A DNA stretch of 64,000 nucleotides from Candidatus Latescibacterota bacterium (GTDB lineage: Bacteria > Latescibacterota > UBA2968 > GCA-2709665): assembly GCA_965203805.1 (NCBI GenBank), contig OZ241917.1, forward strand, positions 2,784,001 through 2,848,000, written 5' to 3'. Position numbers and translations under genes: made by a program. Below are positions 6,113 through 54,651 of the stretch, piece after piece. Each line of letters begins with the position of its first letter. The stretch's first letter is position 1. The notes under the pieces were generated by a model. It had not been told where the DNA came from. It did no database searches and saw only the letters and a list, made by a program, of their open reading frames with translations.

Positions 6113-6113
6113 C

Positions 6114-36296: not shown

Positions 36297-36363
36297 CGGG
36301 AGACTGGTGAGATAATTCTGGGACAGGACGCCAGATCGGGGCCATGTGCTTTTGCGCATGGCC

Positions 36364-38577: not shown

Positions 38578-38946
38578 TTATAGATTCAGCGTATGACGGA
38601 GAGCCGCATCAACTTTGGCCATTGGAAGCGATCCAATGACGCGGTCAATTGCCGATTCCACAATTGTGGCAAGATTGTCAGCCATAACTACAGAATCTGT
38701 GAGTAGACCCGATTGTTGTCCTTCGGGGGTGGAAAGTAGAATGGCAACACGGCTCGAGTGATTGGCGCGAAACATCCTGCTGGTAATCATCGCCACGACC
38801 ACTTGGGATAAACCAGTCTGAAGATTATCAGATTGAACGATTAATCCCGGACGTGGCTTGGCTGTAAGCAAGTTAGAATCCGGAAAGAGCACTAAGACGA
38901 CGTCACCGCGACTATAGGTTGGATTTGGCTGCGTCATAGTTGTCAT
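38578..38946 (-). CDS. Type II toxin, PemK/MazF family endoribonuclease
   Basis: RGDVVLVLFP, KPRPGLIVQ, AMITS, SGL..DSVVMADNLAT. Confidence 0.92.
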   Translation of the reverse strand: MTTMTQPNPTYSRGDVVLVLFPDSNLLTAKPRPGLIVQSDNLQTGLSQVVVAMITSRMFRANHSSRVAILLSTPEGQQSGLLTDSVVMADNLATIVESAIDRVIGSLPMAKVDAALRHTLNL

Positions 38947-39163
38947 AAATACTCATTTCCGGGCTTTCCCAGTCTTCGGCAAAGGCCGTCAGGCGTTCGC
39001 GCAAATCTGCCGCCTGCGCCTTGTCAATACCGCGTCCTCGTAAATCGATAGAATGTGTTGGCAGAAATGTGACAATGACGGGCGTATCTTCATGTATATC
39101 GCTGGGTAATTCCGGAAGTTCAATCTTACCGCCGCGATACACTCCTTCAATCGTCGTGAGCAT
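38912..39163 (-). CDS. Putative antitoxin cognate to the MazF-like toxin
   Basis: Small acidic protein; TIEGVYRGGKIEL N-terminus; C-terminal DWESPEMSIYD; overlaps the toxin start. Confidence 0.8.
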   Translation of the reverse strand: MLTTIEGVYRGGKIELPELPSDIHEDTPVIVTFLPTHSIDLRGRGIDKAQAADLRERLTAFAEDWESPEMSIYDNYDAAKSNL

Positions 39164-39299
39164 GGGGATCACTCCTTCTTAATCGATGGTCTGTCAACTG
39201 TTCATCCTTATTTCCCGGTGAACGGTTCTGGCCTGCGGCGAATTATTCACTGTTCCATGATTTTCGCACCAAGGTATTACGTTGGGAATCAACTTAGTA

Positions 39300-39923
39300 T
39301 CAAAACGCTTCGTTTGAAACCAACTTCTTGTAGAAATGCGCCTCCACAGTCTTCAGGCGTGACTGATAAATCGATTTTTCGGTTGGTCCGGTTGAATCAA
39401 ACACCCGAACAAAAAAGCGGCATTTTTTCGACTTAGACCTCTCAAACAAGTTGGATGTTGCCGAAAGAAAAGACGCTTCCGAGATGTCCTGATTCATCAC
39501 AATATTCTGCAATTTCAGTGCCCGCCGTTCCTCTCTCCGGTGAGGTAGGCCAGTCTCCCTAACGACCAGTCCCTTAGGGGTGAGATTTATGTCGAAAATG
39601 TACTCAATGGATTCATCGTCCCGAACCCAGCAGGACGGAACTTCGGTCCCTTTACCTGCTGATATGGGGCCCTCATGCTCCCGCGCTATCCGCAGAGCAT
39701 CCCTTACAGAATCGGGATCTGGCGAAAATCCGTGCTCTTGCGCGGCTTCCCGAAATTCTTCAAGCCGTTGCCTTGCCTCTTGGTTTTGCACAACCATCAA
39801 TTGGTTTTGCACAACCATCAATATGAGAAGAAACATCGCAAGAATAAAAATAGATGTGATCAGATCCGTAAAAGACGGCCATACATTGAGTGAGGTATCC
39901 CTACGAGTTCGTCTCTTATTCAT
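39300..39923 (-). CDS. ZorB/MotB-like single-TM protein with non-OmpA C-terminal domain
   Basis: Basic N-terminus, then VWPSFTDL (conserved channel Asp) and a TM helix; short coiled coil; C-terminal domain with PSCW and CRFF; directly downstream of a MotA-like gene. Confidence 0.75.
   Translation of the reverse strand: MNKRRTRRDTSLNVWPSFTDLITSIFILAMFLLILMVVQNQLMVVQNQEARQRLEEFREAAQEHGFSPDPDSVRDALRIAREHEGPISAGKGTEVPSCWVRDDESIEYIFDINLTPKGLVVRETGLPHRREERRALKLQNIVMNQDISEASFLSATSNLFERSKSKKCRFFVRVFDSTGPTEKSIYQSRLKTVEAHFYKKLVSNEAF
39781..39822. repeat. Exact 21-bp tandem duplication (LMVVQNQ x2)
   Basis: tggttttgcacaaccatcaat at 39781-39801 and 39802-39822. Confidence 0.95.
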
Positions 39924-39939
39924 TGCCAGATACCTACCA

Positions 39940-41769
39940 TCAGAAGAAACGCTTCAGTTTGTCCATAAAACTTAACTTTGGCGGACGGTCATCCCTGCGT
40001 TTAAGTGCATCAGCCATATCGCTAAGTGTGCCCTCCATAGCCTTTACAGACGCCACAATCTGTTTTTGCTCGCCGACGACTTTGGGAAGATTACTCAGCG
40101 TTTGAATGACACCTTTCAAATTTCCAACAAGTGTCTGATCCAGACGCTCAATGGCACTTTCCACGTCCGAAAGGCCCGTGCGTAGCGTGCCCACCTTTTC
40201 ATCCAAGTCGGTGTTGTCTCTATCGCTAAATTCCTGCTGAAGCTTCAGCAGAGCTTGTTCTGTGGCGTGAATGGCGTCCAGTTGCGCCTTGATGTTGTCA
40301 AAAACGGGTTTGTACGTTGGCTCATCGGGGTTGAGTTTTTGAATCAACTGATATGTTTCCTCCATTGTCAAGCCCAAGGTATTCATTCTTGCATAAAAGC
40401 CATCCATCATTTTATCGACTGCGGATTTCAACTCTTCCAACGGCTCACTGAGCCTGGTAAAATTAGAAATGTGTTTCACAAAATTCTCGCCCGACTTACG
40501 TATATCATCGGCTCCAGAGTTGAGCGCATCGCAAGCAGTGTTGAGGGTGTCCAAAAGCGGTTTGAGCGCGACTTTGAGATGGTCTGAATGATCTTTGAGT
40601 GTCTTTATGAGAAGGTCCGCTTGCTCTGCCATCAATGCCGAATGTCGATACGAGAAATCCTCAAGTGTGCTGCTCCATTTCTCACTCACTTGCTCGTTGG
40701 AGGCACTCGCTTTTTTTAGCGTATCACTGGCGTCGTTAAGCGTTTTCAAAAAAGGGACAAAGGATGTCGAGACCTTTTCAAAATGCGCTTCGAGTGCTCT
40801 TTCTATAGAGTCTGCCTGACTTGCCATCAATGCGGAATGTCGATGCGAGAAATCCTCAAGTGTGCTGCTCCATTTCTCACTCACTTGCTCGTTGGAGGCA
40901 CTCGCCTTGTTGAGCATGTCACTGGTGTTGTTGAGAGTTTGCAGAAAAGGCCCAAATGAAGCCGATACCTTCTCAAAATGTGCTTCAAGTGTGGTTTTGA
41001 GATAGTCTGTCTGATCCGTCATAAATTCCGAATGTCTATCTGCAAGACCTTTAAAAGCTTCTTGAACCGCCTCTTTCAGATCCACCTCAGGCAAAAACAA
41101 TCTGAATTTGGGGGCGATTTCTTCATTGCAATAGGTTTCTATCTCGGCAATCAATACAAGCCTTTTCTTGCTGAGAATTAGGAAACAGATAGTCAATACA
41201 ATCATGCAACCTAACCCAGCGATGCTGGTTATAAAGGCAAACTCCATCCCAGAGAACGACTTGACGATATTTTTTAGCATATCCGGCAGGCTTTGTGTTG
41301 CATTGTCTCCGGTATTTTGGATAATGCTTTCAATCGGTCGGATGACTTGGTAAAGCCCGATAAATGTCCCGAGAAGACCCAATACGATCAAACTCACGCT
41401 CGTTGTGCGAATCGCTTCGTCATTTCCGCAAAGATCTTCCTCTTCTCTCTGTACCATTTCATCAACGACTGGTGGTTTATTTTGCCGAAACCCCGCCCAG
41501 AGCAACTTCAGCCATTGTTGTGTTTTCGGATTCGAAGTAGAATCCGAGGGTGCATTTGCTGCTCTGCTGGCAATAAATCCTTGATGATTTTTTTCCCAAC
41601 TTTCCAAGTCTGCAAGTGCATTTCTCGATCTGGTTATCTTGCGCCACATTTTTGCTAAAAACCAAAGGCCCAAGCAAAAAAATATGCCCATAACGAGCAA
41701 CCAAATTACCAAAAAATTCGATGGATTCGACCCAAAAAATAAATCTGACATATTGGTAAATTTCCTCAT
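39940..41769 (-). CDS. ZorA/MotA-TolQ-ExbB-like channel protein with long helical cytoplasmic tail
   Basis: Three TM helices with LGLLGTFIGL and FSGMEFAFITSIAGL; about 400-aa helical tail containing 65-aa repeats. Confidence 0.85.
   Translation of the reverse strand: MRKFTNMSDLFFGSNPSNFLVIWLLVMGIFFCLGLWFLAKMWRKITRSRNALADLESWEKNHQGFIASRAANAPSDSTSNPKTQQWLKLLWAGFRQNKPPVVDEMVQREEEDLCGNDEAIRTTSVSLIVLGLLGTFIGLYQVIRPIESIIQNTGDNATQSLPDMLKNIVKSFSGMEFAFITSIAGLGCMIVLTICFLILSKKRLVLIAEIETYCNEEIAPKFRLFLPEVDLKEAVQEAFKGLADRHSEFMTDQTDYLKTTLEAHFEKVSASFGPFLQTLNNTSDMLNKASASNEQVSEKWSSTLEDFSHRHSALMASQADSIERALEAHFEKVSTSFVPFLKTLNDASDTLKKASASNEQVSEKWSSTLEDFSYRHSALMAEQADLLIKTLKDHSDHLKVALKPLLDTLNTACDALNSGADDIRKSGENFVKHISNFTRLSEPLEELKSAVDKMMDGFYARMNTLGLTMEETYQLIQKLNPDEPTYKPVFDNIKAQLDAIHATEQALLKLQQEFSDRDNTDLDEKVGTLRTGLSDVESAIERLDQTLVGNLKGVIQTLSNLPKVVGEQKQIVASVKAMEGTLSDMADALKRRDDRPPKLSFMDKLKRFF
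40651..40905. repeat. Intragenic direct repeat, 195-nt period
   Basis: 60 identical nt at 40651-40710 and 40846-40905 (ASASNEQVSEKWSSTLEDFS x2). Confidence 0.95.
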
Positions 41770-42644
41770 CCAGCAATGATCACTTTTGCTTTGAGATCTA
41801 TCTCATCGGTTTGTGAATTCTTAAGCCCATGCGCCAAGCACCTTACAATTCGGTCCCGGGGTTGTGTCCCGCTTGTATCCTGACTGGCAATTTGAAATCG
41901 GCGCCTGTCAAAAGAATCCCCTGGACGCGCTCCAATTATCTCTACTTCATCCCCTCCCAAATCCATCATCAGATCAAAAACACGCTGCGCGTCCTCCTGT
42001 CGATTCTGTGTTACTCGACTGTCGATTTCGGGTAAGAAGTATCGAATCATCTGTGCGGGACGGGTACGGCGTAGAAGGCTTTCTATTGAAGACGCATTGA
42101 AAACTTCCTCACCTATAAGAGCACCTTTGAGCCAAAGAACCGGATCATCTGAATCATCTTGCATTTCGCGCAACGTCAACAGATCCTGTATTTGTTTTAA
42201 TGGCTTCTCAACCTCCCGATCAACATATACAGCGAAAGATGCACGGTCATCCTGCGACATCGCGCTCTTTATTTCCTCTAAAGCCGACCGAAACTGCCTC
42301 AAATACGTTACACGGTCTTTCAATTCGCGCCAATTTTCTTCATCCAAATCATCTGAAAAGCTACCTACACTTTCTCTTATTCTTCTCTTCAACAATTTTA
42401 TCCATTCAATATCTTCTTTATTCTGACCATTTTCCAAATCTTTGATGTTTTCTACTTCTGTACGGAGATTTGAAACGTGGGTCGCATAAACCTGTACCCG
42501 GTCCGACACTATAGCCTTCACGTCTTCACTTGCTTCTGATCGGGATTTTAAAACCTGCTTTCTTAACCATATAACAGACAAGAGTGCTATTAGAGAAATA
42601 ATGAATGAAATGACATTCAACAATGAATCAAATTCCTTAAACAT
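41766..42644 (-). CDS. Membrane-anchored GrpE-like protein
   Basis: RBS GGAGGT before ATG 42644; N-terminal TM; coiled coil; C-terminal PGDSFD....IVRCLAHGL...KAKVII matches the GrpE beta-domain pattern; follows an Hsp70 gene. Confidence 0.65.
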   Translation of the reverse strand: MFKEFDSLLNVISFIISLIALLSVIWLRKQVLKSRSEASEDVKAIVSDRVQVYATHVSNLRTEVENIKDLENGQNKEDIEWIKLLKRRIRESVGSFSDDLDEENWRELKDRVTYLRQFRSALEEIKSAMSQDDRASFAVYVDREVEKPLKQIQDLLTLREMQDDSDDPVLWLKGALIGEEVFNASSIESLLRRTRPAQMIRYFLPEIDSRVTQNRQEDAQRVFDLMMDLGGDEVEIIGARPGDSFDRRRFQIASQDTSGTQPRDRIVRCLAHGLKNSQTDEIDLKAKVIIAG

Positions 42645-42664
42645 CAAGCTACCTCCAAGAAGCA

Positions 42665-45600
42665 TTATGTGTAGGAAAAGTTCATACACCTTCGATGTGC
42701 TTCCCATACGTATTCAAAATCACTGCCATCTTTTTCATTGCCAACCCGATAGTTATACAAAAGGTCCGCTTTCCCCGCTACATCACATTTCAGTTCCAGG
42801 CAGTAAGTCCAGAATTGTGCGTTTTGAAATACATCATCGTCTTTTGGCACAGTTAGATTGGCAACGACCCTATTTTCAGCCTGGGTTACTCTTGTGTTTA
42901 AGTCCCACCCAAAAAACTCAACAAGCGCGATTCGGCTACTTGCCCTTTCTATTTCTATGATGAGGCCTGGGTTTTCCGGAGTGATGGTCGTATCTGGCTC
43001 CAACGGCGTCCAGCGATCAAAAACGAGTACAAAATGGGTAAATGCACGCATGCAGATGGGATAATTTAATTTTCGTATCCCTTTTGGAGGCGAATAATAG
43101 AGATCGCTCAAACTCCTACCATACTCAACAGCACCCAAAGCCACGCTTTTTTTCAGTTTTTCTGGTTCGAAAATGATCTCTTTCGCCTGTACTCTTTCTT
43201 TCGCAACCGTTTTTACGAGCGGGAGACGAGAGGTGTTTCCTTCCAAGATCAGATAATCTAACTGAGTATCGGCGATCTGATTCTTGTTGAACAGATAGTG
43301 CTGCATCTGATTGAGCTTATCAAAGCCTTTTTTCAGCTCCTCGCGGACAGAATTATAGATGTCGTTAATAGCTAAAGGTGCCATATCTGGAAGTAAGTTG
43401 TCATTCAAAAAACGCAGCGTGCCTTCTATACTCAGAGTGGCATTCTCAGGACTTTTACTCTTGAGAGAAACGCGTGGCCAATTATCGGGGATATTGGAGG
43501 ATTCGATCAGATCTAAAATGCCGTTCTCTCCACCATGAAGATGTTCAGCATAATCTTCGGGTTCCAGAGCCTCTCTAAGAAAAGACGTTATTCTATTGTT
43601 CTCCTTTATTGTTTCTGCTAATCCATAGAGTTGGGAGAAATTCTCCTCTTCGATTTTTTCCAGTGGTCTCAGTGCCTTATCCAATGTATCGGGAAAAGGG
43701 AATTGGGTTCTGTAAACCTCAGGGACCATTTGAAAATACAGATATTGCGCGATTTTGAAAGACAGCAAGTCGCCACCCAGCGAAACATCTCCGTCAGAGG
43801 CGAGAATTTCAATGTCGGGTCGTCCATATTCTTGAGGGGTTAATCGTACAATTGAGATGTCCGTGGTCCCTCCTCCACAATCGAAGACGCCATAAACAAT
43901 ATCTCGACCAAGGTCCTGCTTGATAGCGATATCCAGTGCATAAGCAAGGGCGATGGCCTCCGGTTCACTAATCTCAAGAATAGGTTTGAGATTCATTCCC
44001 TGTGTCGCCCACGCAATGGCTTTTCTCATTGACTCCTTTTGGCGATTAAAAACTGCGGGATAAGTAAAAACGGCTTCTGAGGGCACATAACCCGTATTTT
44101 CTTGGAAACTCTCCAATAAGAAACGGATGTAAAGCCCTACCTTTTCAATCGCACCAACTTCAATATATCTATTGCCCTGGGTATAAATTCTTCCATTTAA
44201 GCTGAGGCTCCCTGTACCCAAATCATTATAAATAATCTGTTCGTGGGGCGTTCTCAAGGTGCGCTTAAAACCCCAAGAAATTGATGAGATATGTTCAGAA
44301 TGAAACCGCAGGTCTTTAAGTGTATGACCAAATTTGACAAGGGCTTCTTTTTCCTTCAAAACAGTCCGCCTTACGTCAGCCCCCGGCTCTTGTAAAACTT
44401 CCAAAAGATCATCGGGGTTTTTAATCGCCAAAAACTGAAACACAGTGGGTATTTCCGAGCCCATTTCCGAGACATCTTCGCCAAGGTCTATTTCCAGTAG
44501 TTCCTCTTTGTCTTGGGCGTCCTGATCTATATATGCGATACACGAGTTCGTGGTACCGAAATCTACTGCAATAGGAGAATCCAGAAGCTGAGGAGGTCGG
44601 ATTTGAACGGGAAGAGAGATGGATTGATGGAACGTTTCGCCTTCGCCAACGGTAGCTCCGTGAATGACCAGAGTTGCCTTATCAGTGGTGTTCTCCTCAA
44701 CTGTCGGAAGTGTGTCTTGATTGAGAATCAGGTCAATTGGAGAACTCGAATTATCTATAAGAATTGGCTCCTGATCTGTAATTTGAATTCTTGTATTGAG
44801 CCAAGGCTGATTTGATTCAACCCGAGTAATTCGAAGTGGTGGACCACTTAAGTGCTTTACCGTTACGGTAAAGCTCATCTTTTTGTTTCCTCCAGATACA
44901 AGTGCCTGCTCGTTGACAAATTGACGGCTGAACTTCCACTCAATCTTTGGCTTATTAACATAGCGCAACAACAACCTGAATGTTATCTCGCCCAAACTGT
45001 CAAAAGGGAAATTTAAAATAGCAGGGCAAGTCTCTTCAAAGTCCCGTCGCCGAGTGAGACTAAATCTAAATGGATGCTCAGGAGAAAGTTTATCGGGAAA
45101 TTCCTGGTCCGGCGGTAAGTCAAAATGACCTTTGCCTTCAGACAGGAAAGGCGCGGCCTGAAGCCTCAGCGGAGAATCGTGATGAACCGTAAGGGTGACC
45201 CGTCCGTCGTCAGGGTCTATTGCGCAGGGCTGATATTCGACTGTGTCGTGTTTAAACTCGTGCTCATCTGGTGAAACAAGCCAAATCTCCGGTGCTTTCT
45301 CGCATCGAACAAAAAAAACAACAGGTTTAATTGACGAAAGTGATGAAAGCAATTCTAATCGCCCGATATTGCGCTCATGTGCATTATGCGAACAACGGAG
45401 TTCTACACTTTCATCGGTATCAAGTCTATACGGTAGATCAATATCTCCGTGCCGTTGGGTGATTCCGAAGCCCTGAGCCTTTAATTCACGAATTTCTATG
45501 GGATTGACGCCTTCGTTTTTAACCTTTAGCGTGATGGGTATACCAGAAAAAATCGTCCAGGGAGCACCCCTAAGGTCTTCGTCCGGATCTGGAGTGACTG

Positions 45601-45715
45601 TTATTCTAACTAACTGATATGCACACCCCCCGCAGAAGATATCTTTGGGTGAAATTTGCCAGTGGCATCTGGGGCATACCGGTGTGTTGCCTATTGAGTT
45701 CATTTTGAAACGCAT
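42665..45715 (-). CDS. Atypical Hsp70/DnaK-family ATPase with N-terminal Zn-ribbon and Ig-like domains
   Basis: CPRC..CGGC; beta-rich region; VDFGTTNS, TYPAVF, SEPEAIALAY, FDCGGGTTDIS, LGGD, EGNTSRLP, SVALGA; no recognisable canonical substrate-binding domain. Confidence 0.88.
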   Translation of the reverse strand: MRFKMNSIGNTPVCPRCHWQISPKDIFCGGCAYQLVRITVTPDPDEDLRGAPWTIFSGIPITLKVKNEGVNPIEIRELKAQGFGITQRHGDIDLPYRLDTDESVELRCSHNAHERNIGRLELLSSLSSIKPVVFFVRCEKAPEIWLVSPDEHEFKHDTVEYQPCAIDPDDGRVTLTVHHDSPLRLQAAPFLSEGKGHFDLPPDQEFPDKLSPEHPFRFSLTRRRDFEETCPAILNFPFDSLGEITFRLLLRYVNKPKIEWKFSRQFVNEQALVSGGNKKMSFTVTVKHLSGPPLRITRVESNQPWLNTRIQITDQEPILIDNSSSPIDLILNQDTLPTVEENTTDKATLVIHGATVGEGETFHQSISLPVQIRPPQLLDSPIAVDFGTTNSCIAYIDQDAQDKEELLEIDLGEDVSEMGSEIPTVFQFLAIKNPDDLLEVLQEPGADVRRTVLKEKEALVKFGHTLKDLRFHSEHISSISWGFKRTLRTPHEQIIYNDLGTGSLSLNGRIYTQGNRYIEVGAIEKVGLYIRFLLESFQENTGYVPSEAVFTYPAVFNRQKESMRKAIAWATQGMNLKPILEISEPEAIALAYALDIAIKQDLGRDIVYGVFDCGGGTTDISIVRLTPQEYGRPDIEILASDGDVSLGGDLLSFKIAQYLYFQMVPEVYRTQFPFPDTLDKALRPLEKIEEENFSQLYGLAETIKENNRITSFLREALEPEDYAEHLHGGENGILDLIESSNIPDNWPRVSLKSKSPENATLSIEGTLRFLNDNLLPDMAPLAINDIYNSVREELKKGFDKLNQMQHYLFNKNQIADTQLDYLILEGNTSRLPLVKTVAKERVQAKEIIFEPEKLKKSVALGAVEYGRSLSDLYYSPPKGIRKLNYPICMRAFTHFVLVFDRWTPLEPDTTITPENPGLIIEIERASSRIALVEFFGWDLNTRVTQAENRVVANLTVPKDDDVFQNAQFWTYCLELKCDVAGKADLLYNYRVGNEKDGSDFEYVWEAHRRCMNFSYT

Positions 45716-45725
45716 CCCAAAAAAA

Positions 45726-48700
45726 TCACTTCATCACATAGATATCGTCTTTGCAGAACTTATCGCGATACGCCAATGGAGTAGCAAATGTATCGATTCC
45801 ATCCCTCATTTTTTCCAATTTTTCATTTAAGGCAGTTTCGTCCAAATTGAACTGCCTGAGCGTCTGATCGTAATCGCTCTGATATGACCTGTCCAGCAAA
45901 ATTCGAAAGGTATGATCTGCGGAGATATCCTCGTTCCCCACGCGAATCTGAGTACTTGGAAATACCTTGTTGAGCAGCCAGCTCTTTAATGCGAGCCGCT
46001 GAATAAAACACTCGTGGCGATTTTCTCTACGCCACTGCTCTTCCAATGTGCGGGTCGCAATATCTAGACGGTCTTTTGCGTCTGATTTGCTACCTATGAT
46101 TAACCGTGCGCGCTCGAGATTGTGACCGTATCTATCTAAATGCTCAATACCTCTTAGCTTAAACGGACGGCAGAACTCTCTCTGAATATTATCGTATTTG
46201 ATAATGCTCATAATTATCCCATTGATCAGGGAACTCTGTGCATTAATCAGTGATCGAACTTCCCCATCATTTTGGGGTGGCAGGATGTCGGCAAATTCCC
46301 AATAATCTTTGATCATGTGACGACGGTACACGTTGATAGGATCTGCTCCGGTATTTGCCCGGTAATCACGATCAAGATCAAAAATATTTCCAATAGATAA
46401 AATGGGAAATGCCATCCATTGGTTTACAAAAACAACGGCGTCATTTCTGTGTTCTGTTGCTTGATATGATTGTCCTTTGTGCGGAGCAACAAGATGGTTG
46501 ACTTGATTGACCCAGACATCGTCCTTAACGCCAATGCGATTATCGGAAATATCTGCCAGACCGGGCAATGCCAGACGTGTATCAGAAACACGAGGTTCAG
46601 CTCTCTGGCTTCGCTTGACAATTTCATCCCGCTCCTGGTCGGCGAAACGATTGCGTAACTCCTCAGTGGCGTGAATATCTGTTTTGAAATCCCCAAAAAG
46701 TTGAAATGTGTATTCATCAATAGTCCTGAGAACGGCATCCCAATTGCGAGGGGAATGACCTCGCCTGGCAGACCGGTTGAATATCTCTCTGGTGCCTGTG
46801 TTTATGGTGTCGATATCTTCACCCTGTGCCGTAGCAATATTGCCAAACAGGATTTTGGCTTCTTCAGAACGGAAATATTTCTCCAGCCCTCCTCGACATA
46901 GACGCGGCAAATCAGTTTCTGGCCATCTTCTTGCCTGTCGGAGATGGTCTTGAATTTCTTCAGGATAATTTAGATCAAGTGTGAGGTTCAGGTTTCTTTC
47001 TCCCGTTACGCGCTGAATATATGCCTGATGGATCTCCAAGAAACCTCTGGACATTTCCTGCAGGTTCTCGCGAAAACCTTGAACCTGTGCTTGCAGACCG
47101 CTCACTCTTACACTAACCTTACCATCATCTCCGGTAACCTCTGCACGACTCCCCAGCAAGCGGATGATTTGTCCCACCAAATCGACGAGAAATCGGGCAG
47201 CATCCTTGCGAAAACGCTTCCGCACCCAATCGGAGAGTTCCCGCTGAGTGGCGTCAACCTGATTTCGAAGGTCTCGATAGATCTTTTGGGCATCCTCGCG
47301 AAAAGCCCTGGCTTTTTCGTCTTCGTAGTGACGCAACGCTATCTTTTTTGTTCGCCAGGCCAGAGGGAGATCTCGCGCTTCTTTCAACCGCTGTTCAAAG
47401 AGACGAAAGTCTCCTGAAAACTCAATATTTATAGGGGATATTTGGGGGCCTTCCATTTGCTCGTTAGCCAGCCTATTCAAATCTCGAAGCACGGATGCCA
47501 ATGCCTCTTTGCTGTGTTCCAAGAAGCTTTCGACATAGTTGGGACCGCACTCTAAAGGATTGCAAAGCATCCCGATACAATAATCTTTTACTTTGTCTTC
47601 GAGTTCTGGAAGCAATCGATCTGCATTGTCGAGGATCTGTTTAATATCGTCCCCTTTAATAGTGCCTTCCTCTTTGAGCTTTTCAGATACCTTCTGTCGT
47701 ATTTCAAGTGTTAGGCCTTCAACTCTCGACCTGGCTTCTGCCACCTGTCGTTCAAGGATCGCAACATCCTGAGCCTCGGGTGCTTTATCGATGCTTTGCA
47801 ATAGATCGGTAAAAACCGGTTTCAGAGTCTCATTTATTGCATGATCCGCCAGCGTAAAGTCTGCACCGGGACGGTTTAAGGCACGGTTGATGAGTCTATC
47901 TGTGGTGAGCTCGATCTGTTCCAAATGGGGTCGTACATCGGCTGTAGAAAACCCAGGAGGAATTTTATTATCCGCCGCGATTATAAAATCCACCAGGTAC
48001 TGTGCGAATTTATTCGATGCAGCATTGGCAAGACGAGGTTGGTTGATCTCCATTTGAGAGAGACCAAATGAGGCATATCGGCATGGGAAGTACTGAACAT
48101 AGTTGTCGCTCTTATATCTCACCATTTGCTGCAAAAATTGCTCCATATTGGAGCGGGCACTGCGCTTGTCCATCGCGAAACGAGTCTGTTCGAAGTCGAG
48201 CAACAGAAACTCAGCGATCATCTGAAACACATCGGCAAAGTCTGCAATGCGGACCCCGGCAAGATTGCTATCATCAAGCAAATAGACAGTTGAGAATGGG
48301 GGTGCTGGAACGCTGTGTTCACTGCCATCCCACTCGAATTTGTGTCGAGTAAAATGGTCGTCGCCTGTACTCTGTGCATCAAAGTATGGCTGCATGTAGT
48401 GTTCGAGTTCTTTGAGGGCGGCAAAACCATTAGCCCGTGTAGTTTGGCGTGCTCCCCCCACAATCTCATCAAAGACAGAAGGTAGTACCAAATGGGCTGT
48501 GCAGACCGCATTTGGAAAAAGATATCGACACAAAAATCCCATGTCGATGAAAGAGCCTGAACCAGTTCCTCCTGCGACGGATGTGACGATTACGATTTCC
48601 AGATCGTTGGAATCGGCATCATAGTTGGGAAATCTCCGCACCATTTCTGTCCTTGCCTCTGCGCTTTGAACGCGGTTGACCTTTCTTTCTATTTCTTCTC

Positions 48701-49157
48701 GAAGTTTATCATAGTGATGAAAAAAGGCTAATCGGCCACAAGGTCGAATCTGCCCAGCTCCTTGTGTGATCGCTGTGGAGGGAAGGGAGTCAAGAGCTTC
48801 TGGAAACCACGACCAGATATGAGGATACATACCTTTGTTATTGCGATATCCTTCCAATTCTTGAGGCATAACTCTACCATCTACTTTTTCACGGGCAGAA
48901 AAGTCTATTCTCCGATCCAGAAGGTCTGTTTCATTCTCCATAATGTCAATATTTCGAATGTCGGTATCAAACCAGAGGTACTCCATCAGAGGCAAACCAA
49001 TCATCCTGTATTTTTCGTAAAACATTCGACGGAGACGCCGCAGAACTTCCTTACCCGTGCCTCCAAGACCAATCAGAACAGTTGGCCTGATGCTGATCCG
49101 ACCTTCTCCTCGCTGTGCTCCACCAAGGCGTTCTGCCGTAGCATTTGTTTCCATCAT
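45726..49157 (-). CDS. Tubulin/FtsZ-like GTPase (Tubulin_2 / FtsZl1 type) with long helical C-terminus
   Basis: IGLGGTG, FDTD, GAGQIR, SVAGGTGSG (tubulin signature), ANGFAALKEL; about 750-aa helical extension. Confidence 0.9.
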   Translation of the reverse strand: MMETNATAERLGGAQRGEGRISIRPTVLIGLGGTGKEVLRRLRRMFYEKYRMIGLPLMEYLWFDTDIRNIDIMENETDLLDRRIDFSAREKVDGRVMPQELEGYRNNKGMYPHIWSWFPEALDSLPSTAITQGAGQIRPCGRLAFFHHYDKLREEIERKVNRVQSAEARTEMVRRFPNYDADSNDLEIVIVTSVAGGTGSGSFIDMGFLCRYLFPNAVCTAHLVLPSVFDEIVGGARQTTRANGFAALKELEHYMQPYFDAQSTGDDHFTRHKFEWDGSEHSVPAPPFSTVYLLDDSNLAGVRIADFADVFQMIAEFLLLDFEQTRFAMDKRSARSNMEQFLQQMVRYKSDNYVQYFPCRYASFGLSQMEINQPRLANAASNKFAQYLVDFIIAADNKIPPGFSTADVRPHLEQIELTTDRLINRALNRPGADFTLADHAINETLKPVFTDLLQSIDKAPEAQDVAILERQVAEARSRVEGLTLEIRQKVSEKLKEEGTIKGDDIKQILDNADRLLPELEDKVKDYCIGMLCNPLECGPNYVESFLEHSKEALASVLRDLNRLANEQMEGPQISPINIEFSGDFRLFEQRLKEARDLPLAWRTKKIALRHYEDEKARAFREDAQKIYRDLRNQVDATQRELSDWVRKRFRKDAARFLVDLVGQIIRLLGSRAEVTGDDGKVSVRVSGLQAQVQGFRENLQEMSRGFLEIHQAYIQRVTGERNLNLTLDLNYPEEIQDHLRQARRWPETDLPRLCRGGLEKYFRSEEAKILFGNIATAQGEDIDTINTGTREIFNRSARRGHSPRNWDAVLRTIDEYTFQLFGDFKTDIHATEELRNRFADQERDEIVKRSQRAEPRVSDTRLALPGLADISDNRIGVKDDVWVNQVNHLVAPHKGQSYQATEHRNDAVVFVNQWMAFPILSIGNIFDLDRDYRANTGADPINVYRRHMIKDYWEFADILPPQNDGEVRSLINAQSSLINGIIMSIIKYDNIQREFCRPFKLRGIEHLDRYGHNLERARLIIGSKSDAKDRLDIATRTLEEQWRRENRHECFIQRLALKSWLLNKVFPSTQIRVGNEDISADHTFRILLDRSYQSDYDQTLRQFNLDETALNEKLEKMRDGIDTFATPLAYRDKFCKDDIYVMK

Positions 49158-49185
49158 GGTTCTACTCCCAAGGCAATTGGTTATC

Positions 49186-50214
49186 TCAATTTTTCTGAGT
49201 CTGAATGCGTGTCATAAAAAACGTGATTACAAAGGCGACAACACCAACAAAGACACACGACCAGAACAAGGCACTTTCATAAGTGGTCTGCCAACCCAGC
49301 AGATAATCCAAATATCCACTGAGATAAAAGATGATCGTCAACGCACTCCCCACAACTGTAATCACAGCCGAACGCGCAAAAGCATGCGCGGGATGTCGCT
49401 CCCGATTTTTTATTTGGACCGTAAAAATCACATATGTGGAGAATAAGTAAATTCCGATAATGATGATCGCCAGCAAAGCCCACATTAGAGAACCAGAAAA
49501 AATAGACGGTCTGGATGCCGACATATAAGCAGGAGGCTCCATACCTGGAACAACCTTGTCCTCATAATCCGATTTGCCCAATAAGGGTCTGGCTTCATCT
49601 ATTGCCACAGCGTAATTGAGATTCTGGGCACGTCTGGCGGTGTCCTGTTTGGTAAATGTTACAATGCCTACTACCTCTCCTTGTTCATTGAACAACGGCC
49701 CTCCGCTATTACCCGGTGAGACGGGTGCCGTGGTCTGGACAACCTTGTATCCATCCTGATTTCGTATCTGCGAAATGATGCCATCGGTGACAGAAAACTC
49801 CTCGCCTAAGGGATTTCCGATCACGACCACAGGGTCGCCGGGTTTTACTCCTGCCACTGTCCCAAGACGCGCCTGGTGAAGGGTCTGTCCACCCAGATCG
49901 GCCTTCACAAGCGCGAGATCTTTGTGCTCATCTTTTGCCACAATTGCCACGATAGGCATCCATTCGGCTCCCTGTACGCGCACCCATCCTTCTCGAATAC
50001 CCTTGATCACATGCCAGTTGGTCAGAAAATAGCCTTTTGCACCATCAATAGATACTCCCGACCCCTGACTCTTTGCGCCATCTGTTTCAATTACCACGAA
50101 GGCGACAGCAGGACCTTCTTCCTCAGCAATCCGCGAAGCAGTGTTATTGCTCGTCCCCCCACAACCCCACAGGACCAATAAAAAACCTATACGCGCAAGA
50201 TGTGATGTCATCAC
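49186..50214 (-). CDS. Trypsin-like (S1C, PDZ-less) serine protease; lipoprotein with C-terminal TM helices
   Basis: Lipobox LWGC; GSG, TNWHV, DLAL, GNSGGPL catalytic triad; three hydrophobic C-terminal segments. Confidence 0.9.
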   Translation of the reverse strand: MMTSHLARIGFLLVLWGCGGTSNNTASRIAEEEGPAVAFVVIETDGAKSQGSGVSIDGAKGYFLTNWHVIKGIREGWVRVQGAEWMPIVAIVAKDEHKDLALVKADLGGQTLHQARLGTVAGVKPGDPVVVIGNPLGEEFSVTDGIISQIRNQDGYKVVQTTAPVSPGNSGGPLFNEQGEVVGIVTFTKQDTARRAQNLNYAVAIDEARPLLGKSDYEDKVVPGMEPPAYMSASRPSIFSGSLMWALLAIIIIGIYLFSTYVIFTVQIKNRERHPAHAFARSAVITVVGSALTIIFYLSGYLDYLLGWQTTYESALFWSCVFVGVVAFVITFFMTRIQTQKN

Positions 50215-50226
50215 ATACTCTCCTAT

Positions 50227-51921
50227 TCAAAATCGTGCAGCCAAACGTTCAACCTTCATCGACATATCGCCCTTCTTTAATATCAGAGCTTTATAAGGCT
50301 CTAACAAAAGCTTGATATTTCTTGGCTGTTCTTCTACCTCCGACTCCAAGTCTTTCGACATATCATTACCCAAAGTATCTTCCACTATGACGTCCTCATC
50401 TGGACGGAAAGCGAACTGAAAAATAGCATCTCGCTTGATGTGTCCCAAACTGATTTCGTCGCCTGCGGCATTTGTTATTTTCAAATCAACCTGCTTGCTC
50501 GCGGGCCCCAATCGAAGCCGTTCCGTGTGTTCCTGAACTTGATTCAGGCTGTCTGTAACCCGATATTTCAACGGATAGTACATTATCCAAGCGATCATAG
50601 CAATCAAGATTATCAAGCCAACAAGGAGTGCGACCCAGGCGATCCAGGGACCTTTAAGGGGTGTGATTTGCAATTCGCCAGAAATCGTACCACCTATCGG
50701 CACGACAGTTGCAGGCTGTTGATGGAGGTACTGGATAATATCAGTAGGCGTATAGATGCGGTTCAACACACCCGGCTGGTCGGTGAAGTACCGCGCTTTG
50801 TAAGCCTCTGTCATGCGAAACGAATTAGGCGGAATTTCTATAGACACAGCGAAATAATAGTCCGCTGGCACAGGGCCAATACGGACGAGGCTCAAGTAGT
50901 CCCAGAAATTTCGATGGTCTGGATAAAAAGGGCCAAAGTGTACCAGGCAGGTATAGACAGAGGTATGTTGGGTCGCAGACATAAGTGTATCTACGAGTGC
51001 TGGGGGGCTTACCCGACCGTAGTGATACGATCTACGGCCTAACAAAATGCGATCCTGCACCTTGCGGGCGTATACCTGCGGAGGTTGGACTTTAAACTCC
51101 GATCCTGCAGGTTCAATGTTAATGTGGCTGAGTCGTGATTGTAGTGTAAAATTAAAACGCAGTCGGCTTTTTTCACTAATTTCCGCAACGATTGGTCTGA
51201 TCAACCCGGGAGCTAAAATAATGGTATCATCAATCGGCTTCATCACCATCGGCTCCATTCCCTCGTTCTGCAAAACTGTGACGAGATGCTCAAATTGGGA
51301 GCGGAATTGTGGCTGCGTAAGCAACAGATAAAGGACAAAACCTTTCATTCCCCGGTAGTAGAGCCGACGATCAGGACGGATCCGGATTTCGGAATTGGGG
51401 TTCATGCTTTGCAGTTCGCTATGTCCTTTATGTGGGACGGGATTAGACAGAAGCCCTTCAAACATCCGCTTAAGAGGGATAGCCCGCAAAACTTTGATCG
51501 TATCGCGGTTAAAACAAGCATAAAGTGCTCTGGCGTCGAGATCGCTGGCTGCCTGAACATTGTCCGTGAGCATCATCACAATCGGCGCCCTGTCATATCC
51601 CGTATTAAATGCCGCCTCAAGATTGGTATATCCACCCCAGGTCTTTGTCTTTTGGAAACTCTCGGCACCCTGCCAGGCTACTGTATCTGGCCGGCTTGAA
51701 ACAAAAAAAACTGTCTCTGAGGGAATGTCCTTCTGGTCGCACGCCTTTTTCAGGATATTGACCAGAATATTGAGTTCTTTACTGTTGTCGAAACCAGTCA
51801 TCGAACCAGAGCCGTCAATCTGTATGCTCACTCTTTGGGCATATACCGACGATGCTTGTGCGAACAATATGCCCAATATGATAATAAAATAGGCCACTGC
51901 CTTAGGCCTCTCTATCCCCAT
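50227..51921 (-). CDS. Membrane-anchored vWA-like domain protein
   Basis: Signal peptide; MIDAS DGSGS, YTNL, LTDN; TM segment WIAWVALL..IAWIMY; about 110-aa C-terminal tail. Confidence 0.75.
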   Translation of the reverse strand: MGIERPKAVAYFIIILGILFAQASSVYAQRVSIQIDGSGSMTGFDNSKELNILVNILKKACDQKDIPSETVFFVSSRPDTVAWQGAESFQKTKTWGGYTNLEAAFNTGYDRAPIVMMLTDNVQAASDLDARALYACFNRDTIKVLRAIPLKRMFEGLLSNPVPHKGHSELQSMNPNSEIRIRPDRRLYYRGMKGFVLYLLLTQPQFRSQFEHLVTVLQNEGMEPMVMKPIDDTIILAPGLIRPIVAEISEKSRLRFNFTLQSRLSHINIEPAGSEFKVQPPQVYARKVQDRILLGRRSYHYGRVSPPALVDTLMSATQHTSVYTCLVHFGPFYPDHRNFWDYLSLVRIGPVPADYYFAVSIEIPPNSFRMTEAYKARYFTDQPGVLNRIYTPTDIIQYLHQQPATVVPIGGTISGELQITPLKGPWIAWVALLVGLIILIAMIAWIMYYPLKYRVTDSLNQVQEHTERLRLGPASKQVDLKITNAAGDEISLGHIKRDAIFQFAFRPDEDVIVEDTLGNDMSKDLESEVEEQPRNIKLLLEPYKALILKKGDMSMKVERLAARF

Positions 51922-53149
51922 TGAGAGGATAACAGTACAGCATTGTGGAATTATCTTCTCTCATCAAGACATATACACTATGCCCAAAACCTGCTGGTGC
52001 GGTCACAGCAGTCAGACCAGTGTTGAACGACCAGAAGCGCGGACGAGAAATGCCATTGTTGCGGTCAAAATGGAATAGTGACACGAGGGGCAACCCATTA
52101 GGATCTTCATTATCTTGAAAACCTATGAGAACATTGCCAAAAGAGCTACACATGTCCGTCTGACTCATGAAGGCTGGATACGCTCTATCAACACTACTAT
52201 CCAGGGGATTCACTAAATTTACGCCTTCAGATGTGACCACAACGAACCAATTCTGATCGTCAATGTCTATGGAGTGAAGGGCTGTCGCACGGAGATCAGG
52301 TATGGTATCTGTAATGGGTTCGAGATTATCCTGAGTAAAAGAAATTATCCTGACATCACCATTCTCTTGTCTGGACGCTAAGCGAAGCAGGCCAGTGCAG
52401 TTTGATCCTACGCAATGGCTCTTGCCCCCTTCTTCAAATCCTTCATAAGGCTCCGAGACACCATCATCTGTCAACAAGGCCATGTTATACTCACCTACGA
52501 GCGCCACCATAAAATCTCCGCCTTGCAGTGGAACCAGCGTTTCAATATCAAATGGCGTGTCTATTTCTCGAGGTTTGTAAGCAGTTTCCTCTCCTTCTAC
52601 CCAAAAATTATTGATGGATGGTGTATCTCCTATTCTTATTCGACGATTTGCTTCGTCAAGTACGAGCAACCGATTTTTGAACAACCAAAATTTCTGTACA
52701 TTCTCGGCACATGGCCACCAATTCGTGCTCATAGCCATATAGTCGCTGCAGAGCGCAGACACCGGAAAAACATGGAGATTACCGTGAGTGTTCAGGACAT
52801 ATATCCAACACTGGTCAAAGCGAACTTCGGCGATTCCCTCGGTGATGTGTGAGAGAAAAAAAGGGGTGCTTTCGTGGAGAGGGTTGGGAAAAACGACCAT
52901 ATTTCCCGTAGCTTTCTCAACAACCAATGCAACGCCGAATATGTTCAAGAGCAAATCAGGTTTTCCTCTAAGCGGAACTATGTGTTCCTCGGGCGGGCGA
53001 CTTTCCGTGGGCGCTACGGGTGCTGCAACTAGAGTCGCTTTATCCGGGAGACTGCCACATTGAGAGCAGAAATTGGCGAGTGGCGGGTTGGTTTCTGCAC
53101 CACAGGCGTTACATTTCCACGTGTTTGTCGTCCAATTCCATTTGACCAT
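51902..53149 (-). CDS. Zinc-ribbon plus beta-rich (propeller-like) hypothetical protein
   Basis: CNAC..CSQC at the N-terminus, Pro-rich linker, beta-strand repeats; first gene of the operon. Confidence 0.7.
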   Translation of the reverse strand: MVKWNWTTNTWKCNACGAETNPPLANFCSQCGSLPDKATLVAAPVAPTESRPPEEHIVPLRGKPDLLLNIFGVALVVEKATGNMVVFPNPLHESTPFFLSHITEGIAEVRFDQCWIYVLNTHGNLHVFPVSALCSDYMAMSTNWWPCAENVQKFWLFKNRLLVLDEANRRIRIGDTPSINNFWVEGEETAYKPREIDTPFDIETLVPLQGGDFMVALVGEYNMALLTDDGVSEPYEGFEEGGKSHCVGSNCTGLLRLASRQENGDVRIISFTQDNLEPITDTIPDLRATALHSIDIDDQNWFVVVTSEGVNLVNPLDSSVDRAYPAFMSQTDMCSSFGNVLIGFQDNEDPNGLPLVSLFHFDRNNGISRPRFWSFNTGLTAVTAPAGFGHSVYVLMREDNSTMLYCYPLNGDREA

Positions 53150-53273
53150 CGAGTCGGCCCTCGCCCCCAGGTAAGCGGGTTCTTGGAACTTACAGTAAGT
53201 CTTCTACGCAAGATGCGTTCATGTTTCTTCATGCTCCCAGCTAACGAAAAGCGTTGAAATCCCCCACCACGGT

Positions 53274-53535
53274 CGCCGACCCTTCGACCCTTCGGCAGGC
53301 TCAGGGCAACGCATGCTCAGGGAGCGGCTCTGAATGCAGGCTCAATGAGATTCGTCTCCTGTATTCCTTAATTTGCGCGATCTATGGTGAATCGATTCAC
53401 TGCCATTACTCGTTTTGCCGCGCTTTTTGGTTTTCATCCTGTCGATCTTGCCTGCCTGTGCCGCCTGCCTGTGCGTGCTGTCGCCCGCACGCAGACAGGT
53501 GCCCGGCACGGCAGACAGGCCATCCATGTAAGTTT
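53274..53535. repeat. Nested REP-like palindromic repeats
   Basis: 53274-53330 is an inverted copy of the 36118-36150 repeat with a second unit inserted; 53451-53519 holds two nested cctgcctg..cagacagg palindromes. Confidence 0.75.
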
Positions 53536-53559
53536 CATTTTCCGAATTCAAAACGCCAT

Positions 53560-54651
53560 TCAAGGCTCAACCGTTACTTTGATGGACCGCTCACCGGCCG
53601 CGACGAGGTCGAAGCCATCCTGGAATCTCTCGAGCGGCAGGCGATGGGTCACGATGCGGTCCATCGGCAGGAGGCCCTTCCGGATCATATCGATCGCGAT
53701 GGGATAACATCCGGGCCCCAGGTGGGCGCCGTGGATGTTGAGTTCCTTGGTGTCGCCGATGATCGTCCAGTCCGTCGTTACGGGCTCCCGCATCACGCTG
53801 AATTCGACGAAAGTGCCGAGTTTGCAGATCATGTGCAGGCCCTGTTCCACGGCGGCCGGGTGCCCGGTCGCTTCGATGTAGACGTCGCATCCGTATCCAT
53901 CGGTGACGTGGCGCACTTCGCGGACGACGTCTGTTTTTCCCGGATTGAAGACCAGGTCCGCGCCGCAGGCTCTCGCCACGTCCAGGCGGTCGTCGTTAAG
54001 GTCCAGGGCGACGAGCAGCCGGGGGTTCTTGAGGCGGGCGGCGGCGACCATTCCCAGCCCCAGTGGTCCCGCGCCGGCGATGACCACGGTGTGGTCCAGT
54101 TCGACTTCGCCGCGTTGGACCGCGTGAACGGCGCAAGCCAGGGGCTCGATGTACACCGCGTGGTGGGCCGGAATCCCCGTGGGGACTCTATAATTGAGCG
54201 CGTCGGCGGGGAAACGCATGAATTCGGCCATCGCGCCGAAGGTGTTCTGCCGGAAGCCGTAAATGTCGTGACGCATGCACATCCAGTACTGGCCGCGCCG
54301 GCAATAGCGGCACGCGTGGCACGGGACGATCTGTTCGGAAATCGCCGTGTCGCCAATGGCCAGTCCGTATTTCTCTCCGGCGCCCGGACCGAGCATAACC
54401 ACCTCGCCGATGAATTCATGGCCCGGGACGACGGGGGCCTGGCAGTACCCCTTCCGGTGTTCGTCTCCCCAGAAGAGCGGTGCGCCGAGATAGCATTTGA
54501 GATCGCTGGCGCAGATCCCCGCGGACCTGACGCGGACAACGACCTCCTCCGGTCCCGGAAGCGGCACGGGGCGTTCTTCCAGCCGGTAGTCTTCGGGTCC
54601 ATGGCAGACAACCGCAGGCATGGTATCCGGAAGTCCGGTTTGCGTCGTCAA
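53560..54651 (-). CDS. eltD: Zn-dependent polyol dehydrogenase, erythritol/L-threitol dehydrogenase-like
   Basis: GICASDLKC..FWGD, PGHEF, SEQIVPC..C..C, GAGPLGLG, KELNIHGAHLGP; closely matches the EltD pattern as I recall it. Confidence 0.8.
   Translation of the reverse strand: MTTQTGLPDTMPAVVCHGPEDYRLEERPVPLPGPEEVVVRVRSAGICASDLKCYLGAPLFWGDEHRKGYCQAPVVPGHEFIGEVVMLGPGAGEKYGLAIGDTAISEQIVPCHACRYCRRGQYWMCMRHDIYGFRQNTFGAMAEFMRFPADALNYRVPTGIPAHHAVYIEPLACAVHAVQRGEVELDHTVVIAGAGPLGLGMVAAARLKNPRLLVALDLNDDRLDVARACGADLVFNPGKTDVVREVRHVTDGYGCDVYIEATGHPAAVEQGLHMICKLGTFVEFSVMREPVTTDWTIIGDTKELNIHGAHLGPGCYPIAIDMIRKGLLPMDRIVTHRLPLERFQDGFDLVAAGERSIKVTVEP

Follow-up and report, generated by a model that had tools for sequence, protein, structure and literature searches.

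A mobile eight-gene cassette of Latescibacterota resembles a Tubulin_2-vWA operon with an Hsp70/GrpE-like pair and a ZorAB-like motor

What kind of machine is encoded where genes resembling the ion motor of Zorya share one operon with a tubulin-like GTPase, an Hsp70-like ATPase, a protease and a von Willebrand factor A (vWA) protein? The question is raised by a cassette at positions 39300-53149 of a 64,000-nucleotide stretch of Candidatus Latescibacterota DNA (contig OZ241917.1, positions 2,784,001 to 2,848,000; this whole stretch is called the window below), for which an initial annotation made from the sequence alone had proposed a candidate new system, either of defence or of membrane remodelling or secretion. 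The cassette is a real, mobile operon under purifying selection. That the operon is functional and belongs, as a horizontally mobile accessory unit, to the Tubulin_2 (FtsZl1)-vWA superfamily, specifying an inner-membrane-spanning signalling and assembly machine triggered by envelope disturbance, is a reading that has an even chance of being right, and the chances of a conflict or defence role are likewise about even.

All eight open reading frames (ORFs) lie on the minus strand, the order g1 to g8 running from 53149 down to 39300, and the following features were recorded (lengths in amino acids, aa; TM, transmembrane):

51902-53149, minus strand: g1, 415 aa, cytoplasmic protein with an N-terminal Zn ribbon and a probable beta-propeller
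50227-51921, minus strand: g2, 564 aa, extracytoplasmic vWA domain, TM helix and cytoplasmic beta domain
49186-50214, minus strand: g3, 342 aa, serine protease of trypsin type, its N-terminus lipobox-like, its C-terminus made of three TM helices
45726-49157, minus strand: g4, 1143 aa, tubulin-like GTPase (Tubulin_2/FtsZl1) with a long C-terminal extension
42665-45715, minus strand: g5, 1016 aa, Hsp70-like ATPase with an N-terminal Zn ribbon
41766-42707, minus strand: g6, 313 aa, membrane-anchored coiled coil with a remote GrpE-like C-terminal domain
39940-41769, minus strand: g7, 609 aa, ZorA-like MotA/ExbB-family channel subunit with a long coiled-coil tail
39300-39923, minus strand: g8, 207 aa, chimeric ZorB/MotB-like protein
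39780-39821, minus strand: 21-nt exact tandem duplication (LMVVQNQ twice) where the two parts of g8 meet, read from the sequence
39265-53560: horizontally acquired insertion of about 14.3 kb, ends approximate, from flank comparison with the congener G055

Going from g1 to g8, neighbouring ORFs overlap by 20 nt, then lie 12, 28 and 10 nt apart, overlap by 43 nt (with the longest ORF used) and by 4 nt, and are 16 nt apart at the last junction; the ORF coordinates agree with the eight co-oriented genes, separated by less than 30 nt or overlapping, of the initial annotation, whose gene order was also right. Its description of an AT-richer island holds as well, since the guanine-plus-cytosine (GC) content per 1-kb window is 0.42-0.49 between 39 and 53 kb against 0.55-0.63 outside (left flank 0.55-0.63, right flank 0.58-0.62). 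All eight frames are open with motifs intact, and each of the eight proteins has some domain assignment, parts of g1, g4 and g5 excepted. In a promoter and terminator scan the number of sites was not above that in shuffled sequence.

The cassette is a horizontally acquired insertion between adjacent native genes. In the congener G055 the DNA matching window positions 36335-39264 and 53560-56100 is separated by 240 bp, and both flanks are kept in 14 of 14 congeners while the cassette is found in none of the 14. The Hsp70-like gene is present in 16 of the 168 genomes of the phylum (6 of the 52 high-quality ones) and in 0 of 14 further species belonging to the same genus as the window genome. Gene order is kept in 15 of 15 other Latescibacterota loci, and because the whole cassette is conserved in 15 other genomes the operon is not a chance assembly; where the initial annotation had allowed for a chance mosaic, the motor and the Hsp70/tubulin genes were found together, in the same order, in these 15 genomes and in the separate metagenomic lineage of loci L170-L173. 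In every genome the GC content of the cassette is 8-15 points under that of its flanks. Compared with a genome of another family, the window has a synonymous divergence (dS) of only 0.34-0.69 for g1-g7 and of 1.67 for the chimeric g8; across four pairs, all genes have a ratio of nonsynonymous to synonymous divergence (dN/dS) of 0.14-0.51. Of the 15 loci, one runs off the end of its contig; decay was seen in two others, the first having an opposite-strand ORF in its tubulin gene and the second a ZorB of 56 aa. In the former (L109 of genome G146, 5682-6692 in cassette orientation) an opposite-strand ORF of 336 aa interrupts the tubulin-like gene, and on a metagenomic Latescibacteria contig (L113, 16780-22356) three copies of a 324-aa opposite-strand ORF replace the motor genes; these ORFs are probably insertion sequences and examples of cassette decay.

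The tubulin-like protein g4 is assigned to PF13809 (Tubulin_2) with an E value of 1.7e-66 and 225 bits against a cut-off of 27 over residues 27-389; its GLGGTGK and [AG]GGTGSG loops are kept in 14 of 14 orthologs, and its C-terminal extension of about 750 residues is largely helical. The Tubulin_2 profile retrieved no tubulin, no FtsZ and no solved relative among PDB sequences. In the Makarova and Koonin (2010, PMC2875224) study FtsZl1 genes were described in operons with vWA proteins, OmpA-family proteins, kinases and GTPases and a role in membrane remodelling was proposed, as the initial annotation had stated. From what that paper's text describes, the cassette shares with these operons a Tubulin_2 protein with a long C-terminal extension beside a vWA protein that is membrane-bound or secreted and has an intact metal ion-dependent adhesion site (MIDAS), as well as a patchy distribution with horizontal transfer, and orthologs of the window cassette share with them an OmpA-family peptidoglycan-binding protein, whereas neither the kinases nor the P-loop GTPases named there are present in the window cassette. 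Both features of an FtsZl1/vWA operon were thus found here, a Tubulin_2 protein with the GTP signature and, in the same operon, a vWA protein with intact MIDAS. The terms hsp70, dnak, mota, tolq, exbb and protease have 0 occurrences in the main text of PMC2875224, the neighbour supplements lying outside this search.

The next gene product, g5, matches HSP70 with an E value of 3.2e-14 and 52.5 bits against a cut-off of 20.6, while its profile matches the nucleotide-binding domain (NBD) of DnaK alone (1.1e-17). The protein is composed of an N-terminal Zn ribbon, about 350 residues of beta-rich sequence, the Hsp70 NBD and a short C-terminal domain. It shares with Hsp70/DnaK chaperones the actin-fold NBD with phosphate-1, phosphate-2 and connect motifs, of which DFG[TS]TNS, DCGGGTTD and SEPEA[IV]A are kept in 14 of 14 orthologs, but the C-terminal peptide-binding domain and lid of these chaperones were not detected in g5, the DnaK matches being confined to the NBD (query residues 538-654 in g5, and profile positions 3-353 of 599 in a metagenomic relative). 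Against the DnaK equivalog models g5 reaches 66 bits, where cut-offs are 648-822. The N-terminal region is highly divergent within the family, only four Zn-ribbon cysteines being invariant in 27 sequences. In an exhaustive g5 search the number of representatives was 27 at E ≤ 1e-30 and rose to 99 at E ≤ 1e-10, lengths of 830-1100 aa being frequent, and a relative 93% identical to g5 was found among database proteins.

The partner protein g6, for which a later methionine may be the true start, has a TM segment at residues 28-46, a coiled coil and a GrpE-like domain at about residues 178-313. The alignment of its C-terminus with 21 GrpE domains in hhalign gave 83% (E 8.9e-6) against ≤5% for nine controls; the g6 hidden Markov model (HMM) picks out proteins which carry PF01025 by Pfam, and at loci L184 and L162 the gene after the Hsp70-like gene, i.e., in the g6 position, carries PF01025 itself (32.3 and 24.0 bits). 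Whole-genome PF01025 searches of the cassette-bearing genomes found canonical GrpE alone. In nine loci of more distant type g6 was not seen by tblastn, and an ORF of 310-337 aa in its position has a C-terminal motif in common with it. The AlphaFold2 (AF2) model of g6 is poor, with a predicted local distance difference test (pLDDT) value of 54.7 and a C-terminus below 50, and a complex prediction of the g5 NBD (370-870) with two copies of g6 (120-313), with a score of 0.00 and a mark of 0.32, is evidence neither way.

Three further proteins open the operon. As a single sequence g2 has no Pfam match; despite this, a profile of 37 sequences matches vWA structures (8s05_A 3.3e-6; integrin alpha-X I domain 8.1e-6; 5a8j_A 0.0088), and the MIDAS motifs DGSGSM, T99 and TDNVQ are kept in 14 of 14 orthologs. 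Its AF2 model is confident (pLDDT 87.8): an N-terminal helix, which is a hydrophobic helix or signal, is followed by an alpha/beta domain and beta-sandwiches, after which a TM helix (424-447) leads to a beta domain in the cytoplasm; Foldseek with this model gave weak multi-domain matches to Ig-like and integrin ectodomains with query-normalised template-modelling scores ≤0.15. The protease g3 has a trypsin fold (Trypsin_2 1.5e-29), its His, Asp and GNSGGP Ser motifs and a Cys in lipobox-like context are kept in 14 of 14, and TM segments lie within residues 246-334. The His-Asp-Ser triad on a trypsin fold is common to g3 and the HtrA/DegP proteases, which have one or two C-terminal PDZ domains; g3 has no PDZ match in Pfam and ends in three TM helices instead, and it scores 65-117 bits against DegP/HtrA equivalog models of NCBIfam whose cut-offs are 416-800. 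In g1 the Zn-ribbon Pfam matches are weak (DZR 0.011), the cysteines C13, C28 and C31 are invariant in 14 orthologs, and TM prediction gave no segment; the alignment of g1 with metagenomic cluster C4, whose representative matches DZR and the PQQ_2 beta-propeller, reaches 96.8% in hhalign. The profiles of g1, g2 (14 sequences) and g6 had no significant match among PDB sequences.

The adjacency of g1 and g2 recalls ArnA/ArnB, a Sulfolobus module (5a8i "ARNA" and 5a8j "VWA2"), in that a Zn-ribbon gene stands beside a vWA gene, and it differs in that g1 contains a propeller and is without an FHA domain. The partner chains of the vWA relatives of g2 (8s05_C for 8s05_A, 5a8i_A for 5a8j_A) are at the same time the best matches of the g1 Zn ribbon, at E values of 0.12 and 0.19, neither of which is significant. 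A contact of the ArnA/ArnB type between g1 and g2 is unlikely, because the vWA domain is predicted outside the membrane and g1 inside.

A precedent for this set of proteins is offered by the conflict systems with DO-GTPase and GAP1-N2 described by Kaur et al. (2020, PMC7159879), who predicted them to act through regulated multimeric assembly and arranged them into three "non-overlapping" themes, including tubulin with extracellular vWA, and HSP70 with GrpE. According to the text of that paper they have a tubulin with a C-terminal helical extension and a TM protein with extracellular vWA, an HSP70 "sans its peptide-binding domain" with GrpE, and Zn ribbons, beta-rich domains, trypsin-like peptidases and membrane proximity, and all of these are found likewise in the window cassette, GrpE as a remote likeness. 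The differences are of four kinds. The published systems are built round a P-loop DO-GTPase and GAP1, while none of the eight proteins has a conserved Walker A/P-loop (two chance matches lack conservation); the tubulin/vWA and HSP70/GrpE-like themes, kept apart there, share one operon here; the cassette has a MotA/MotB-type motor, while MotA and MotB have 0 occurrences in the text of PMC7159879, its source-data tables lying outside the search; and the cassette is hosted by Latescibacterota and unassigned metagenomic lineages, unlike the DO-GTPase systems, reported mainly from Actinobacteria and Firmicutes. By its domain content, the cassette unites two of the published conflict themes, without their GTPase core, and adds a ZorAB-like stator. 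The novelty claimed in the initial annotation has therefore to be divided: the tubulin-vWA link (PMC2875224) and the tubulin/vWA and HSP70/GrpE conflict themes (PMC7159879) are already published in the text of these sources, while their joining to a ZorAB-like motor in the absence of a DO-GTPase appears undescribed. Among the papers listed in literature searches none was found that combines Tubulin_2/Hsp70/vWA genes with such a motor, although the supplementary tables of both sources may list neighbours of this kind.

The motor itself is encoded by the last two genes. Among the MotA-like models of PADLOC and NCBIfam, ZorA alone matches g7, with E values of 1.9e-13 to 1e-8 for the PADLOC ZorA models and of 6e-11 for NCBIfam ZorA_1 (41.3 bits, cut-off 190; ZorA_2, ZorA_3 and ZorA_4 are below their cut-offs too), while MotA_ExbB of Pfam is reached with 22.7 bits against a cut-off of 22.9. 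The TM segments at 20-38, 119-137 and 180-198 are followed by a coiled-coil tail of about 395 residues, in which a near-exact internal tandem repeat of about 70 residues (ASASNEQVSEKWSSTLEDFS... twice) lies at about residues 270-390; the orthologs have total lengths of 529-633 aa, so tail length varies within the family. The full-length g7 profile matched coiled coils alone in the PDB. Outside the window, the same genome has a further ORF, about 590 aa long, with weak ZorA/MotA-like similarity (G000:C1:5322127-5323899, plus strand; tblastn 20% identity, E 1.9e-4; HMM E 6e-5).

In g8 the resemblance is confined to one part. Residues 1-47 form a ZorB-type TM helix with Asp20 (PADLOC ZorB1 2.7e-5 over residues 3-60 alone), and after the LMVVQNQ duplication about 150 residues (about 49-207) come from an unrelated Latescibacterial membrane-protein family whose members are proteins of 250-320 aa with a TM helix of their own. 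The domain calls of the initial annotation are consequently supported for all eight proteins, with the restriction that g8 is MotB/ZorB-like over residues 1-47 only. Orthologs of g8 in 13 other genomes carry an OmpA-like domain; the one at L002 matches ZorB1 with 7.5e-16, and the ortholog profile matches OmpA domains (1.5e-8) and, over TM helix and ectodomain, the PDB chain 8qyd_F (2.1e-5), presumably ZorB. Concealment of the OmpA domain of g8 by a frameshift was ruled out, as tblastn found no OmpA-like domain in any frame, in g8 or across the window. The same chimera is present with unbroken frames and 88-92% identity in two database proteins, P0161 and P0163, the duplication being diverged in P0163 and absent in P0161, and the contig of P0163 equals in length that of the 93%-identical g5 relative; the exchange is therefore old and tolerated. 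Two side observations concern this protein. In L103 (genome G084, 14791-14960) a stop soon behind the TM helix shortens ZorB to 56 aa, near the place at which g8 of the window changes family. At L224 (G083:C1:3906500-3926400, 5716-13747, minus strand) a member of the family which donated the g8 C-terminus, the 261-aa TM protein P0177, is encoded behind a coiled-coil protein of 469 aa whose matches to ZorA models are limited to their tail part, with an AAA+/PD-(D/E)XK protein nearby; this locus is possibly another membrane-coupled system.

Could the exchange have left the cassette a decaying or silent passenger in the window genome? The missing OmpA-like domain would agree with this, as would the shortened ZorB of one genome and the ORF inserted in the tubulin gene of another; against eight open frames with intact motifs, a chimera preserved in P0161 and P0163 and a dN/dS of 0.17-0.42 for g1-g7 between the window and L101, such an explanation is very improbable.

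Zorya was characterized by Hu et al. (2024, PMC11946911) as a 5:2 motor with a peptidoglycan-binding ZorB and a signalling tail. Common to Zorya and the cassette are a subunit of the MotA family whose cytoplasmic coiled-coil tail is very long, the adjacency of the A and B subunit genes at the end of a mobile operon and, in the g8 orthologs, a MotB-family subunit with both TM Asp and OmpA-like peptidoglycan-binding domain; compared with ZorB, g8 of the window has kept the TM Asp and lost the peptidoglycan-binding domain. The partner genes differ, being cytoskeletal or chaperone-like here and DNA-binding or nuclease proteins in Zorya, and a PADLOC scan of the eight proteins at E ≤ 0.1 gave no ZorC, ZorD, ZorE, ZorF or ZorG, in line with the earlier statement that Zorya effectors are not recognisable. 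The cassette might nevertheless be true Zorya of a new subtype, with ZorA/ZorB orthologs and with g1-g6 replacing ZorC/D, ZorE or ZorF/G as effectors recruited by the tail. The exclusive ZorA match, the long tail of variable length and the ortholog and profile matches to ZorB1 and 8qyd_F speak for this; the scores lie far below curated cut-offs (41 against 190 bits for ZorA, 14.9 against 400 for ZorB), most ZorA-model matches fall in the coiled coil, a region also matched by SMC, Rad50 and apolipoprotein models, and g2, g4 and g5 are far commoner without a motor, which makes the explanation improbable. From these comparisons, membership of Zorya proper is not supported, and at most a working like that of the Zorya motor would be expected.

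How far the parts travel without the motor is seen in metagenomes, where the best 80 of 410 Tubulin_2 loci, a set selected by similarity and not at random, were compared. Tubulin_2 relatives of similar length with 25-31% identity occur in other phyla. By clustering, the vWA-TM family is present in 44 of the 80 loci and the large Hsp70-like family in 32; the Hsp70-like gene adjoins the tubulin gene in 23 of the 52 loci with at least 1.5 kb downstream, and a vWA-TM gene is found in 36 of 56 with at least 2.5 kb upstream. MotA or MotB genes are limited to 5 of 80: MotA_ExbB and OmpA genes end the operon in L170, L172 and L173, the contig of L171 stops inside the MotA gene, and one locus beyond these has an OmpA protein. 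The core is vWA-TM, Tubulin_2 and an NBD-only Hsp70, often with a GrpE-domain protein, and is widespread in metagenomes, while the MotA/MotB addition was seen, among the loci examined, in Latescibacterota and one other lineage alone; since g2, g4 and g5 are far more widespread without it, the motor looks like an add-on and not a defining part. A tubulin-domain tree (FastTree, midpoint root) gave no decision between motor genes as ancestral and as gained twice. No P-loop cluster was found on the operon strand of the 80 loci. Annotated neighbours, from 133 of 286 candidates scanned, included Trypsin_2 (2), Peptidase_C14 (2) and FGE-sulfatase (2).

Seven plasmids of cultured bacteria carry tubulin-like genes. 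On two of them, Nostoc punctiforme pNPUN01 (L225, 131592-150728) and Azospirillum sp. TSA2s p2 (L226), annotated tubulin-like and vWA genes have CHAT, caspase-family, S8 peptidase, TPR and OmpA-family genes as neighbours. Loci L058, L060, L066 and L081, from metagenome-assembled genomes of Defluviitaleaceae/Clostridiales, are clusters of three Hsp70-like genes beside which stands a 535-621-aa protein with a C-terminal GrpE domain (PF01025 confirmed in L058, L066 and L081), with no tubulin gene within the loci; they probably represent the HSP70 and GrpE theme of Kaur et al. (2020, PMC7159879).

According to topology predictions the outer side of the membrane holds the vWA and protease domains and, in orthologs, the peptidoglycan-binding domain of ZorB; the Zn-ribbon/propeller protein, tubulin-like GTPase and Hsp70-like ATPase lie inside, and both the GrpE-like protein and the ZorA-like tail have their anchor at the inner face. 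On the reading as a conflict machine, an envelope disturbance, most plausibly by a phage or foreign element, would be registered by the vWA, protease and ZorB-like ectodomains; the ZorAB-like proton channel would be unplugged and its long cytoplasmic coiled-coil tail would relay the signal inward, as in Zorya; the output would be GTP-dependent tubulin-like assembly at the membrane and not a nuclease; the NBD-only Hsp70 and the membrane-tethered GrpE-like exchange factor would set the threshold of assembly or reverse it; and the outcome might be invader containment, growth arrest or local membrane remodelling. As the ZorB ectodomain is exchanged in the window, the input may differ there from that of the orthologs. 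The 5:2 motor, the periplasmic sensing and the control of tubulin assembly by chaperones put forward in the initial annotation are likewise putative. A conflict flavour is suggested by patchy distribution, horizontal transfer, gene decay and the plasmid-borne tubulin-like/vWA genes beside caspase/CHAT peptidases and, by analogy, by the classing of tubulin/vWA and HSP70/GrpE modules as conflict systems in the text of PMC7159879.

Several results weigh against this reading. No recognisable nuclease or classical effector is found among the eight proteins, PADLOC matched nothing beyond ZorA/ZorB-like models, and both sets of motor scores are far under the NCBIfam cut-offs given above; the best solved stator match of the g7 N-terminal profile is 8vvn_C with an E value of 0.025. 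The ZorB of the window is devoid of the peptidoglycan-binding domain on which Zorya-type activation depends, and which the periplasmic sensing proposed initially would need as well. For g6 there is no PF01025 match at E ≤ 0.1, and its HMM does not match the window genome's own GrpE at E ≤ 1e-3. The scanned neighbours of metagenomic loci are mostly unannotated or housekeeping genes, a scan of viral contigs gave no relatives, and the flank genes in the window genome, a lectin-like protein, a CAAX protease-like protein and the PemK toxin of the native flank, are not defence genes.

The principal rival is a non-immune machine for membrane remodelling, vesicle formation or envelope maintenance, in which a tubulin-like polymer would shape the inner membrane and a Tol/Mot-like stator would power or position it. 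MotA/TolQ-type stators serve non-immune functions, all parts of the cassette are membrane-associated or cytoskeletal, and neither Pfam nor PADLOC found a nuclease or toxin-type effector; in genus g25 the cassette occupies one conserved chromosomal site, and a 754-aa neighbour accompanies it in 8 of the 9 f4-family loci fetched (seven from g25, one from g21). Remodelling is, moreover, what the text of PMC2875224 proposed for vWA/FtsZl1/OmpA operons. On the other side stand the presence in 16 of 168 phylum genomes and 0 of 14 congeners after acquisition by horizontal transfer, the repeated decay, the dN/dS of 0.3-0.5, fairly high for g1, g4, g5 and g6, and the relatives beside caspase/CHAT genes on plasmids. 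A dispensable, mobile and fast-evolving unit fits a conflict role better than a housekeeping-type role, and the rival, though worth serious attention, is rather unlikely.

As to the surroundings, a PemK/MazF-like toxin gene (window 38578-38946, minus strand; PF02452 2e-14) is preceded by an 86-aa ORF without Pfam match (38912-39172, minus strand), a possible antitoxin. This toxin-antitoxin-like pair was considered as a part of the island and ruled out: it lies in lower-GC DNA, yet it is native flank because the stretch 38578-39172 is matched in the congeners G055, G046, G052 and G045. Repeats of 58-150 bp at window 53175-53520 and 36200-36338 have many copies across the window genome and its congeners, up to 98% identical; the position of one cluster coincides with the right-hand junction of the insertion, and this cluster may have helped the integration.

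The Tubulin_2/FtsZl1 proteins are a large, uncharacterised branch of the tubulin superfamily, for which a 2023 paper on FtsZ/tubulin evolution, in its passages on these proteins, cites the 2010 genomic-context analysis alone. Through the cassette this branch gains an eight-gene setting that is compact, conserved and transferable and in which each component has clear catalytic sites open to mutation, and Nostoc punctiforme and Azospirillum are tractable organisms for tests of Tubulin_2 systems. It also joins the separate fields of signalling ion motors (Zorya), bacterial cytoskeletal GTPases and specialised Hsp70 cycles. As a speculative and doubtful extension, a ZorAB-type stator with a GTP-driven tubulin-like polymer as output, gated by a private Hsp70/GrpE pair, might constitute a new class of envelope-triggered immunity or membrane remodelling, and the vWA-Tubulin_2-Hsp70-GrpE operons might then, just as tentatively, be motor-less relatives of the same machine. 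If it is true that the motor controls filament assembly, 5:2 motors would have wider roles and Tubulin_2 function would become directly testable in a heterologous host.

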